Assembly (NCBI RefSeq): GCF_988243305.1
Contig: NZ_OZ547136.1
DNA length: 64,000 nucleotides
Reading direction: 5' to 3' (one strand)
Both the position numbers and the translations under genes were made by a program. The notes beneath the pieces were generated by a model. That model was not told where the DNA came from and searched no databases. It saw nothing but the letters and a program-made list of their open reading frames with translations. Below are positions 14,580-64,000 of the stretch, piece after piece (position 1 is the stretch's first letter; each line of letters begins with the position of its first letter).

Positions 14580-15719
14580 TTACCAGTTATGAATGTCGCT
14601 GGCTGTATCCGTCATGTAACGGACACCGCTAATAGTTGGCAGCAACTGATTGATCAGACGGTTCCAGCGGGAAACCGGGGCGGTGGTGACATACACCACG
14701 TCATAAGGTTGCAGGCGGAATTCTGTCGCCATCACCAGCGACGTGGCATCGGACATATCCAGCTGGTAGATATTGGCAATCTTGCCGTTACGCCCACCCT
14801 CGCCTTTCAGCGGACGAATGACAAAGATGCCGCTGGCGTTGGAGGTGGTCATGTCGATGCCTTCAGCATTGCCCAGGGCTTCAGTCAGGGTCATGCCGCT
14901 AAAGTCCATTTTCAGGGTGCTCTGTTTTTTAACTTCACCCATCACAAATACTTTCAGATCATCATTACGCGGCACGTAGAGAATATCGCCGGGGTAAAGC
15001 AGTCGGTTCTGATTGAGGTCGCCGTTTTGCATCAGCGCCTGCAAAGAAATGCGTTCTTCACGACCATTGTGTGTTAGCACCACGTTGCGCCAGTCAGCGG
15101 TGTCGGTCAGACCACCTGCGGCGTTGATGGCATCGAGAATGGTCAGTGGTACGTTGGTGATGGCCTGTTGACCGGATTTATTCACCTGACCTGAGATATA
15201 CGCTTTTTGCGAGCGGAAGGCGGCGATATTAACGTCCACCTGCGGGTCAGCGATGTACGTCGCTAAGCGCCCGGTAATATCACTGCGGATTTCAGCGAGC
15301 GTTTTCCCCACCACGTGAACTTTGCCGATATACGGGTAGAACATGGTGCCGTCAGGCTGTACCCAGTTGCCGGTGTCGCTGGAGCTGCGGTACTGACCGG
15401 CTGGCGTGGTAAGTTCCGGGTGATCCCAGACGGTGACATTAAGAACGTCCCCCGGCCCGACGCGATACTGGTAATTCGCGATCTCGCTTTCCAGCGTCAT
15501 ATTGGGGCGCGCTACGTTGGGTCGTGGGCGTAATTGATCAATCAGGCGCGGGGTCAACGGATAAACATTCACCATTTTGTCGAGATCGAAATCAGCGTCC
15601 TGCTGTTTGATGACGTCTTTGCCCATCGTCGACATATTGCTGCCCGGAAGTACTGTGCAACCGCTTATCAAGGTTACTGACACCAATAATGGCATCAATT
15701 TCATTTTGGATTTCATCAT
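14580..15719 (-). CDS. wza: Outer-membrane polysaccharide export lipoprotein
   Basis: 379-aa [24 protein letters not shown]... with signal peptide and lipobox; first gene of the cluster. Confidence 0.95.
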
Positions 15720-32545: not shown

Positions 32546-32705
32546 TTCAGCGTCCCGCTGAAATCATCGGCTTACCTCCTTTCGCCATGCACGTAGTCTA
32601 TCGCTAACGCGTAGATAAAATAGTTTCATGTATTATTACTGGATGCGTGCTCGCAAATGTGCCCGCCATTCAGACGATTCCCGATAGTGTTTCATAATTC
32701 CTCCA

Positions 32706-60505: not shown

Positions 60506-61306
60506 TCACCACCACGCGTGGAAGTGGTGAACCGGACCAATACCGTGACCAACTTCCAGCGTGTCGGCCTGGGCTAACGCCGATGAAAGCCAGCTTTTTG
60601 CCTCCTGTACGGTGTCAGCCCAGTTTGTATGGCGCGGGCGTAGTGCAGCCAACGCCGCAGAGAGTGTACAACCAGTGCCGTGGGTGTTTTTGGTCATAAT
60701 GCGCGGTGCGGTAAACCGTTGTTCACCCTCGCGGGTAAACAGCCAGTCCGGGCTTTGCTCATCATCCAGATGACCACCTTTCATTAGCACTGCGCCACAG
60801 CCCATCGCCAACAGCGATCGCCCTTGTTCCAGCATTTCCTGTTCGGTGCGCGCGTGTGGCGCGTCGAGCAAGGCGGCAGCTTCGGGCAAGTTTGGCGTTA
60901 TTAATGAAACCTGTGGCAATAATCGACTGCGCAGCGTAGCAACCGCCGAAGGTGAAAGCAGCGGGTCGCCGCTTTTTGCCAGCATAACGGTGTCGAGTAC
61001 CACGTTTTGGATCTGATAACGTTGCAACCTTTCTGCCACCGCTTCAACAATATCGGTTTCCGCCAACATACCGATTTTAGTGGTGTCGATTCGCACATCG
61101 CTGAACACCGAATCGAGCTGGGCGGCGACAAAATCAGGCTCAATGCGATACACCGACTGTACGCCACGGGTATTTTGCGCCACCAGTGCAGTAATCACTG
61201 AGCAACCATAAGCGCCAAGTGCCGAGAAGGTTTTAAGATCGGCCTGAATCCCCGCACCACCACTCGGATCAGTACCGGCAATCGTCAGAGCGTTAATTCG
61301 TTTCAT
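60506..61306 (-). CDS. thiD: Hydroxymethylpyrimidine / phosphomethylpyrimidine kinase
   Basis: 266-aa [30 protein letters not shown]...; 4-bp overlap with thiM. Confidence 0.95.
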
Positions 61307-62091
61307 GCCTGCACCTCCTGCGTCAATTGCCAGAGCGCATCAAGGAAATGTGGAACAAAACTGCCTGGCCCCTCGCTTCTGGCGGCTGCGCGTTCTCCGG
61401 CTTGTTTCATCCAGTGACAGGCAGATGCGACATTTTCCAGCATATCGCCTGGTAACGCACAACAGGCAGCGACAACCGCCGATAATGCACAGCCAGTTCC
61501 TACCACTTTGGTCATTAACGGATCGCCACCGTGAATACCAATGATACGATGTCCATCGGTAACATAATCCATCTCGCCAGTGACCACGACGATTGCGCCA
61601 GTTTCCCGTGCCAGTGTTTGTGCAGCGGGTATCGCGTTAGCTGCGGCGTCAGTGGTATCCACTCCCCGTCCACCATTAGCAACGCCAGCTAATGCCATGA
61701 TTTCCGAAGCATTACCACGTATGGCGGTTGGCTTATGAGACAGAAGTTCCAGACAAAAACGGCGGCGATAATCGAGTGCACCCACCGCTACTGGATCAAG
61801 CATCCAGGGTGTTTGAGAGCGTTTTGCCTGTTCAACGGCGGCACGCATCGCCTGTGCGCGTGGCTGCGTCAGTGTGCCAACGTTAATCAGCAACGCACTG
61901 GCGATAGCCGCAAACTGACTGGCCTCTTCGGTTTCGATGACCATTGCTGGCGATGCACCGAGCGCCAGTAAGGTATTGGCAGTAAAGGTTTGCACCACAT
62001 CGTTGGTCATGCAGTGCACAAGAGGGGAATGTTGGTGAAAAAGGTGTAACGCGTGCGCAGATTGCGCGGAACTCAGCAGGTCGACTTGCAT
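61303..62091 (-). CDS. thiM: Hydroxyethylthiazole kinase
   Basis: 262-aa ORF. Confidence 0.95.
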
Positions 62092-62094
62092 AGT

Positions 62095-62225
62095 TTGCTC
62101 CTGCCATAACGTGAAGAAGCAATGACCTGGTGGTCCGTGACTTCCCTACGCTGGCATTATCCAGATCAGGTGATACGGGTATTTCTCAGCCTTCACGCAG
62201 AAGGGCACCCCGAGTCGTTTGATTG
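62095..62225 (-). promoter_or_regulatory. TPP (thi-box) riboswitch in the thiM leader
   Basis: Minus strand reads ...ACGACUCGGGGUGCCCUUCUGCGUGAAGGCUGAGAAAUACCCGUAUCACCUGAUCUGGAUAAUGCCAGCGUAGGGAAGUCACGGACCACCAGGUCAUUGC..., containing the conserved CUGAGA and ACCUGAUCUGGAUAAUGCCAGCG thi-box elements. Confidence 0.9.
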
Positions 62226-62313
62226 CGATGATAAATCGCAGAGGAGGATGGTAATGTCCAGCGCACGCGTTGTAAACGAGGAAAAACGGCAGTTTTACAA
62301 TAGCGTTAATAAA

Positions 62314-62586
62314 TTATTTGATATAAGAATCCAGCACCTTCAGAACGACATCCAGATCTTCTTCACGTTTTAGCTCATCCCCCTGGTGAACGATGTGTTC
62401 CGTCAGATGACCTTTAATCACTTCCCGCATCAGACCGTTTACCGCGCCACGGATAGCAGCAATCTGTTGTAAAACTGCAGCGCATTCGTGCGGCTCGTCG
62501 AGCATTTTCTTGAGCGCCACGACCTGGCCCTGAATCTTACTGGCACGCGCTTTCAGTTTCTGTTTATCACGGATGGTATGAGACAT
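62314..62586 (-). CDS. rcnR: Ni/Co-responsive transcriptional repressor (CsoR/RcnR family)
   Basis: 90-aa [32 protein letters not shown]... Confidence 0.95.
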
Positions 62587-62706: not shown

Positions 62707-63531
62707 ATGACCGAATTTACAACTCTTCTTCAGCAAGGAAACGCCTGGTTCTTCATCCCCAGCGCCATCTTACTTGGTGCGCTTCATGGCCTGGAACCAG
62801 GGCACTCAAAAACGATGATGGCGGCGTTTATCATCGCCATCAAAGGCACCATTAAACAGGCGGTGATGCTCGGACTGGCAGCAACCATTTCGCATACCGC
62901 AGTGGTCTGGTTGATTGCCTTTGGCGGGATGGTGATCAGCAAGCGCTTTACTGCTCAATCAGCAGAACCGTGGCTCCAGTTGATTTCCGCAGTGATCATT
63001 ATTGGCACCGCGTTCTGGATGTTCTGGCGTACCTGGCGCGGCGAACGAAACTGGCTGGAGAATATGCACGAGCATGATCATGAGCATCATCACCACGATC
63101 ACGAAGATCACCACGACCATGGACATCATCACCATCACGAACATGGCGAGTATCAGGATGCCCATGCACGAGCCCATGCCAATGACATTAAACGACGCTT
63201 TGATGGTAGAGAGGTCACCAACTGGCAAATTTTGTTATTTGGCTTAACCGGTGGCCTTATCCCCTGCCCGGCAGCAATTACCGTGCTGTTGATTTGCATT
63301 CAGTTGAAAGCCCTGACACTGGGCGCAACACTGGTCGTCAGTTTCAGCATTGGCCTGGCGTTAACGCTGGTCACCGTAGGCGTTGGCGCAGCAATCAGCG
63401 TTCAGCAGGTCGCAAAACGCTGGAGCGGATTTAACACTCTCGCTAAACGCGCCCCCTATTTTTCCAGTCTGTTGATTGGCTTAGTTGGTGTGTATATGGG
63501 CGTACATGGCTTCATGGGCATAATGCGATAA
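62707..63531 (+). CDS. rcnA: Nickel/cobalt efflux permease with His-rich cytoplasmic loop
   Basis: 274-aa ORF; central HEHDHEHHHHDHEDHHDHGHHHHHEHGE loop between TM segments. Confidence 0.95.
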   Translation: MTEFTTLLQQGNAWFFIPSAILLGALHGLEPGHSKTMMAAFIIAIKGTIKQAVMLGLAATISHTAVVWLIAFGGMVISKRFTAQSAEPWLQLISAVIIIGTAFWMFWRTWRGERNWLENMHEHDHEHHHHDHEDHHDHGHHHHHEHGEYQDAHARAHANDIKRRFDGREVTNWQILLFGLTGGLIPCPAAITVLLICIQLKALTLGATLVVSFSIGLALTLVTVGVGAAISVQQVAKRWSGFNTLAKRAPYFSSLLIGLVGVYMGVHGFMGIMR

Positions 63532-63749: not shown

Positions 63750-63965
63750 ATGACCATTAAAAATAAGATGTTGCTGGGTGTGCTTTTGCTGGTTACCAGT
63801 GCCGCCTGGGCCGCACCAGCCACCGCGGGTTCGACCAATACCTCGGGAATTTCTAAGTATGAGTTAAGCAGTTTCATTGCTGACTTTAAGCATTTCAAAC
63901 CAGGCGATACCGTCCCAGAGATGTACCGCATAAGGAGATCCCCTCATAATTTCCCCAAAGCGTAA
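63750..63965 (+). CDS. rcnB: Periplasmic Ni/Co homeostasis protein RcnB, apparently C-terminally truncated and fused to IS10-derived sequence
   Basis: Track ORF is 131 aa; trimmed to MTIKNKMLLGVLLLVTSAAWA... with SD ggagag. Only 71 codons before the stop, and the last ~10 codons (IRRSPHNFPKA) come from the IS10-like end starting at 63935. Confidence 0.6.
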   Translation: MTIKNKMLLGVLLLVTSAAWAAPATAGSTNTSGISKYELSSFIADFKHFKPGDTVPEMYRIRRSPHNFPKA

Positions 63966-64000
63966 CCATGTGTGAATAAATTTTGAGCTAGTAGGGTTGC
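63935..64000 (-). mobile_element. IS10 (Tn10-family) inside-end sequence with the last 18 codons of the transposase; element continues beyond the window
   Basis: Minus strand of 63944-64000 encodes ...ATLLAQNLFTHGYALGKL-stop, followed by ggggatctc, matching my recollection of the IS10 transposase C-terminus and inside end. The expected terminal CTGA is not present at the junction. Confidence 0.5.

Follow-up and report, generated by a model that had tools for sequence, protein, structure and literature searches.

The 39-codon open reading frame (ORF) that follows the Shine–Dalgarno (SD)-like motif GAGGAGG in the gap between thiM and rcnR is almost certainly not a gene, because it consists of the complement of a promoter and of sequence antisense to rcnR, and is broken or deleted in most Escherichia coli. 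The frame is very probably incidental and non-coding, namely, the thiMD promoter read on the opposite strand and continued by a shadow frame of rcnR. The observations that carry this conclusion are the promoter elements, the published transcription start, the codon register relative to rcnR and the missing conservation of the frame. We infer that no plus-strand mRNA is made and translated at the ORF.

The analysed window comprised 64,000 nt of contig NZ_OZ547136.1 (assembly GCF_988243305.1), the end of which corresponds to the thiD–thiM / rcnR / rcnA–rcnB region of E. coli. Window positions are converted to those of MG1655 (NC_000913.3) by an offset of +2,123,210. The features of the locus are as follows:

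61303-62091, minus strand: thiM
62122-62373, plus strand: 83-codon upstream extension of the ORF frame, antisense over the whole TPP aptamer
62126-62222, minus strand: TPP riboswitch aptamer in the thiMD leader (Rfam RF00059, 71.8 bits)
62226-62315, no strand assigned: replaceable 90-bp segment with the SD-like motif, the start codon, codons 1-20 and the K-12-type thiM promoter
62241-62247, plus strand: SD-like heptamer GAGGAGG, read from the sequence
62253-62248, minus strand: -10 hexamer TACCAT of the thiMD promoter, from the promoter scan; the plus strand reads ATGGTA and supplies the in-frame ATG at 62248
62254-62373, plus strand: 39-codon ORF (coordinates including the stop), with codons 1-20 intergenic and codons 21-39 antisense to rcnR
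62276-62271, minus strand: -35 hexamer TTTACA of the thiMD promoter, from the promoter scan, inside ORF codons 6-8
62314-62586, minus strand: rcnR coding sequence; its last 19 codons and stop serve, in codon register, as template for ORF codons 21-39
62326-62328, plus strand: ORF codon 25, AGA in the window, at the site of rcnR Ser87
62707-63531, plus strand: rcnA

The original prediction had described GAGGAGG at 62241-62247, an ATG at 62254 after a 6-nt spacer and a 39-codon plus-strand frame, lying in the thiM–rcnR gap and antisense to the 3′ end of rcnR. All of this was borne out by the sequence: thiM and rcnR are both on the minus strand, the frame stops at TAG (62371-62373), and the overlap spans the last 19 rcnR codons and the stop. 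The ORF is also unannotated, as had been stated, in the MG1655 RefSeq record and in PGAP-annotated genomes, where no annotation except the riboswitch was found at the gap. Two features had been missed: a further in-frame ATG at 62248 abuts the SD-like motif, and the frame is open back to an ATG at 62122, which gives 83 codons. The prediction had left a choice between a small protein and an incidental SD-like sequence; the evidence favoured the incidental reading and went against a small protein, given the promoter complement, the broken frame and the variable SD.

The thiMD promoter on the minus strand

A promoter scan of the minus strand detected the -35 hexamer TTTACA and the -10 hexamer TACCAT, which together match at 9 of 12 positions and are separated by a spacer of 17 nt, within the 16-18 nt of sigma-70 promoters. 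The -10 hexamer precedes the mapped start of thiMD transcription by 6 nt, where a distance of approximately 7 nt is expected. In the SMRT-Cappable-seq tables of the PMC6131387 supplement, the start of thiMD (b2104|b2103) is given as NC_000913.3 2185450 on the reverse strand, that is, window 62240. In the primer table of Adams et al. (bioRxiv 2020.07.18.207399), the forward primer JW10476 for the 'entire 5′ UTR' of thiM begins at CTGCGATTT, which is window 62241; this position corresponds to CTGCGATTTATC, the point at which these authors begin the thiM 5′ UTR. Because the scanned promoter has both starts just downstream, GAGGAGG is recognised as the complement of the thiMD start nucleotide (62240/62241) and the discriminator CCTCCT. 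The ompA primer listed beside JW10476 presumably starts at the 5′ end of the ompA mRNA, which supports taking the primers of that table as transcription starts.

The motif had been placed just upstream of the thiM promoter region, which was wrong, as it overlaps the core promoter itself. The -10 hexamer reads ATGGTA on the complementary strand, and the ATG at 62254 occupies the beginning of the promoter spacer. The hexamers, the 17-nt spacer and the start of the E. coli thiMD sigma-70 promoter and TPP leader coincide with the SD-like motif, the ATG and the first eight codons of the ORF. The TPP aptamer begins approximately 18 nt downstream of the start, and its covariance-model score exceeds the gathering threshold of 54.3 bits (E = 5e-14). 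The locus shows no difference from the known thiMD leader in this respect, the ORF being the complement of a known element.

Eight Escherichia lineages were aligned, comprising the window, MG1655, two divergent 'E. coli', two unnamed Escherichia species, E. albertii and E. whittamii. No position of the -35 block (62269-62285) differs among these lineages, and the -10 hexamer is kept in seven of the eight and reads TAACAT in the eighth (1 of 6 positions variable). The spacer contains six variable sites, and 6 of the 7 positions of the discriminator and start vary, so the hexamers are more conserved than the spacer and discriminator. No stretch of the region varies more than this SD-like heptamer, which is altered or weakened in five of the six lineages other than the window and MG1655 (ATATAGG, GAGGAAG, GAGAAGA, GTAGAGG and GATGAGG). 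The ribosome-binding site of a small-protein gene should be conserved, and across Escherichia that of the ORF is not. Judged from this alignment, the conservation pattern of the region is the one that would be expected of a promoter and not of a ribosome-binding site.

In the explanation that we propose, the 5′ piece of the ORF is the thiMD sigma-70 promoter, consisting of TTTACA, the 17-nt spacer, TACCAT, CCTCCT and the start at 62240/62241. On the plus strand, GAGGAGG comes from the discriminator and start, ATGGTA from the -10 hexamer, and the ATG at 62254 from the first base pairs of the spacer.

Position 62222, which is the first position of the Rfam aptamer match and belongs to its unpaired 5′ flank, is A in the window and G in MG1655 and six other Escherichia lineages; the 55-mer around this position that is identical to the window occurs in 479 genomes. 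The ThiM protein of the window has 96% identity to that of K-12, and the window is therefore not from K-12.

The shadow frame opposite rcnR and the expectation by chance

ORF codons 21-39 are the exact antisense, in codon register, of the final 19 codons of rcnR, and the stop codon TAG is the complement of the rcnR Leu72 codon CTA. Stops in this register are possible only opposite the sense codons TTA, CTA and TCA, which are rare (2.5% of the gene codons in the window), and the frame therefore runs as far as Leu72. For the 47 gene-like ORFs of the window, the antisense in-register open run entering from the 3′ end of the gene has a median length of 32 codons, and 68% of these genes show a run of 20 codons or more. 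The 3′ piece of the ORF is, in our explanation, these final 19 rcnR codons read antisense in register, and both pieces owe their sequence to other minus-strand functions.

The synonymous-substitution pattern had been suggested as a check of the small-protein reading, and in the rcnR overlap it went against the frame. All 10 variable sites in the rcnR overlap (62314-62373) fall at ORF codon position 1, which is position 3 of rcnR; rcnR has a pN/pS of 0.00 there, compared with 1.01 in the ORF frame, and purifying selection in the ORF frame is not seen in this part. Substitutions in the overlap, as far as the aligned lineages indicate, follow the codon positions of rcnR and not those of the ORF. 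The non-overlapping 60 bases contain 20 variable sites, distributed 4/7/9 over ORF codon positions 1/2/3. The pN/pS of codons 1-20 is 0.55 versus 1.11 and 0.74 in the other two frames, a comparison drawn from 20 variable sites and confounded by the invariant -35 block; it is a weak signal in favour of a small protein, against which stands the absence of third-position bias. The stop codon of rcnR itself (window 62314) is TAA in most lineages and TAG in the two divergent 'E. coli' lineages (L003 and L004).

The ORF resembles known shadow ORFs, which are antisense and in register with a gene, in that codons 21-39 keep the register of rcnR and all variation there falls on rcnR third positions. 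It differs from plain shadow ORFs in that 20 intergenic codons are added and that the SD-like motif and ATG are supplied by the promoter of the opposite strand.

The start signal does not exceed what chance would give. Counting both strands, the window contains 12 copies of the hexamer AGGAGG, three of which are followed 4-9 nt downstream by an ATG, compared with approximately one expected by chance; only in the case of thiD is this ATG a gene start. SD-plus-ATG combinations in the window occur at about the chance rate, and 324 ATG-started ORFs of 30-60 codons lie outside gene frames. Other GGAGG/AGGAGG-plus-ATG combinations, used as a base rate, were located at 14841-14976 on the plus strand (42 codons from 14851) and at 32567-32704 on the minus strand (6 and 19 codons from 32567 and 32695, respectively). 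In codon usage, the ORF scores above 90% of spurious ORFs of comparable length, which would count for a small protein, but the score falls between the distributions of spurious ORFs and real genes; it is ambiguous and was given no weight in either direction.

These results advise caution in the annotation of small proteins, as the complement of a C/T-rich discriminator and a -10 hexamer can yield a textbook SD and ATG, after which an antisense in-register frame stays free of stops over dozens of codons. Annotation that takes the pattern into account avoids false calls of small proteins, and the present frame has already been deposited occasionally as a 'hypothetical protein'.

Variation of the frame within E. 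coli and across genera

Conservation of the frame had likewise been put forward as a check, and the frame was found to be interrupted, replaced or absent in much of the material. In MG1655, codon 25 is TGA (A to T at 62326), and the ORF is shortened to 24 codons; the same change is synonymous in rcnR, where Ser87 changes from TCT to TCA. Alleles were counted in 5426 complete E. coli genomes using 55-nt queries centred on the site, with a 28-nt exact seed that necessarily spans it. The TGA allele was present in 3371 of the 5426 genomes (approximately 62%), and 1985 genomes carry AGA. Together these counts come to 5356 of the 5424 genomes containing the region, and the queries were therefore allele-specific. 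The C-terminal 15 residues are lost with the TGA allele, that is, in approximately 62% of genomes.

The 5′ half of the frame is replaced in a further type of strain. In O157:H7, the 90 bp at 62226-62315, including the SD-like motif, the ATG, codons 1-20 and the K-12-type promoter, are swapped for a 2.3-kb island, the junction 55-mer of which is whole in 470 of the 5426 genomes (approximately 9%; O157:H7 and E. coli B type). The E. coli B island adjoining thiM carries the restriction gene EcoBLMcrX (PMC5487053), and the first gene of the island found here begins with the same sequence as ECD_02033 of that E. coli B island (PMC5487053). This first gene is HTH-like (island at L002 729-2998), and the thiM–rcnR gap is the insertion point of the island. 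A simple scan revealed no minus-strand promoter near the aptamer in O157.

The SD block was detected in 4963 genomes, and the SD-like motif and the ATG at 62254 are kept in approximately 91% of E. coli proper, a retention that low within-species divergence and the overlap with the promoter could explain. An intact 39-codon ORF with the SD-like motif is possible in only approximately 1,500-1,600 genomes (28-29%).

Across the eight Escherichia lineages, the ATG at 62254 is retained and codons 1-24 are free of stops in all eight; codon 25 is CGA in the divergent lineages, and rcnR Ser87 is then TCG. Beyond Escherichia, thiM and rcnR were adjacent in only one Erwinia MAG among 80 rcnR loci (one genome per species). 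The gap of this MAG shares with the window just the aptamer and the end of rcnR; it is not homologous, and no corresponding ORF is present in it. The intact frame expected of a small-protein gene was not found, in view of the TGA allele, the island and a junction that is almost confined to Escherichia.

Database and transcript evidence and the alternative readings

No Pfam or NCBIfam match was obtained for the 39-, 83- and 24-residue products. Among 5.8 billion proteins, approximately 25 'hypothetical' or unnamed entries correspond to the frame, and those with a named source are from E. coli or Shigella; some of the entries are truncated or frameshifted, and none has a Pfam domain mapping to the ORF frame. 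The variants from E. coli and Shigella contain radical replacements such as R5P and E9G. A family of homologues, as would be expected of a small-protein gene, was not recovered. The 83-codon frame is sometimes deposited as a 'hypothetical protein', for example, Shigella flexneri DP20_1195 with 68 aa, and such calls are most likely spurious annotation.

No plus-strand promoter-like site was detected upstream of the ORF at 61900-62240 by the promoter scan. The SMRT-Cappable-seq tables of the PMC6131387 supplement list no forward-strand operon starting at 21852xx-21855xx, and the Term-seq and SMRT-Cappable-seq tables give no plus-strand 3′ end at the locus and contain minus-strand features only. 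The acid-stress Ribo-seq list includes no sORF at 21854xx, which is a weak negative. In the PIRT-Seq supplements, thiM and rcnR are named solely within gene lists, and a full-text literature search for the ORF coordinates or the peptide returned only irrelevant numeric matches. The RNA of the gap is not significantly more structured than shuffled sequence on either strand (z = -0.56 and, for the plus strand, -0.45). A structured antisense RNA on the plus strand was rejected at this value, and an intrinsic terminator of rcnR in the gap was rejected as its fold was not significant.

The best-surviving alternative is a young, lineage-restricted small protein, or proto-gene, translated from a low-level plus-strand antisense transcript, which would have 39 residues where the AGA allele is present and 24 in K-12-type strains. 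The ORF does have the start that such a protein would need, with a strong SD, an optimal 6-nt spacer and an ATG, and the start codon and codons 1-24 are open in 8 of 8 Escherichia lineages. However, the SD varies between species, the C-terminal 15 residues are gone in 62% of genomes and the 5′ half in 9%, R is changed to P and E to G among the E. coli and Shigella variants, an upstream plus-strand promoter-like site is missing and the transcript tables named above list no plus-strand transcript. Curated annotation of MG1655 has taken in validated small proteins, and the frame is absent from it, as it is from the acid-stress Ribo-seq list of sORFs. The proto-gene reading is quite unlikely on balance, and the residual claim, that a lineage-restricted and probably non-adaptive peptide is translated, has an equally small chance. 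If the ORF is translated after all, it would represent a modest case of lineage-specific de novo peptide birth and not a conserved regulator.

The ORF resembles the small proteins validated by ribosome profiling of initiation complexes (Weaver 2019; Meydan 2019; Stringer 2021) in having fewer than 50 codons, an intergenic or antisense position, an SD and an ATG. Unlike these, its frame is variable even within the species and absent from the MG1655 annotation, and the candidate is known from sequence alone. A hydrophobic helix is common among validated small proteins, and the ORF product differs from many of them in lacking one.

Pervasive antisense transcription is common in E. coli. Given this background, a proto-gene in flux could be imagined, with an almost perfect ribosome-binding site supplied by chance from the complement of the promoter; were antisense transcription to cross this site, some E. 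coli lineages but not others would produce a peptide of 24 or 39 residues, its length being set by synonymous drift in rcnR (Ser87 TCT/TCA). The chance of this is very slim. A plus-strand non-coding antisense RNA acting on the thiMD promoter or the rcnR 3′ end, through transcriptional interference or RNase III-mediated decay and with the ORF and SD irrelevant, is highly improbable. Antisense transcription of this kind is plausible in E. coli, and such an RNA would have targets because minus-strand transcription covers the whole region, with the rcnR–thiMD read-through operon of the SMRT-Cappable-seq tables among the transcripts; against it, the scanned 61900-62240 interval lacks a plus-strand promoter-like site, the plus-strand structure is not significant (z = -0.45), the Rfam matches are limited to TPP, and a plus-strand 3′ end or operon is absent from the Term-seq and SMRT-Cappable-seq tables.

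The minus strand of the gap is also read through from rcnR. The SMRT-Cappable-seq tables (PMC6131387 supplement) list an rcnR–thiM–thiD read-through operon, b2105|b2104|b2103, with a TSS at 2185819, and no terminator-like hairpin was detected between the rcnR stop and the thiM promoter (62226-62330, minus strand). Read-through from rcnR into thiMD would couple a Ni/Co-responsive promoter to thiamine salvage genes. The read-through RNA carries an anti-SD-like CCUCCUC upstream of the TPP aptamer. It is barely credible that the heptamer acts in this RNA as a putative extra anti-SD that sequesters the thiM ribosome-binding site: the operon exists in those tables, the gap is free of terminator-like hairpins and CCUCCU is complementary to AGGAG (62102) of the thiM ribosome-binding site, but the heptamer varies at 6 of its 7 positions, more than any other stretch of the region, and is missing in the island-bearing strains.

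Set against these alternatives, the incidental frame formed by the thiMD promoter complement and the rcnR shadow frame is the reading that we retain. A separate observation concerns the far end of the window, where no rcnB/IS junction is shared by other complete E. coli genomes in the collection. Positions 63928-64000 are the end of an IS4-family ISVsa5/IS10-like element, and the homology to rcnB ends at 63928, approximately at codon 59 of 112; rcnB is therefore interrupted in this genome.
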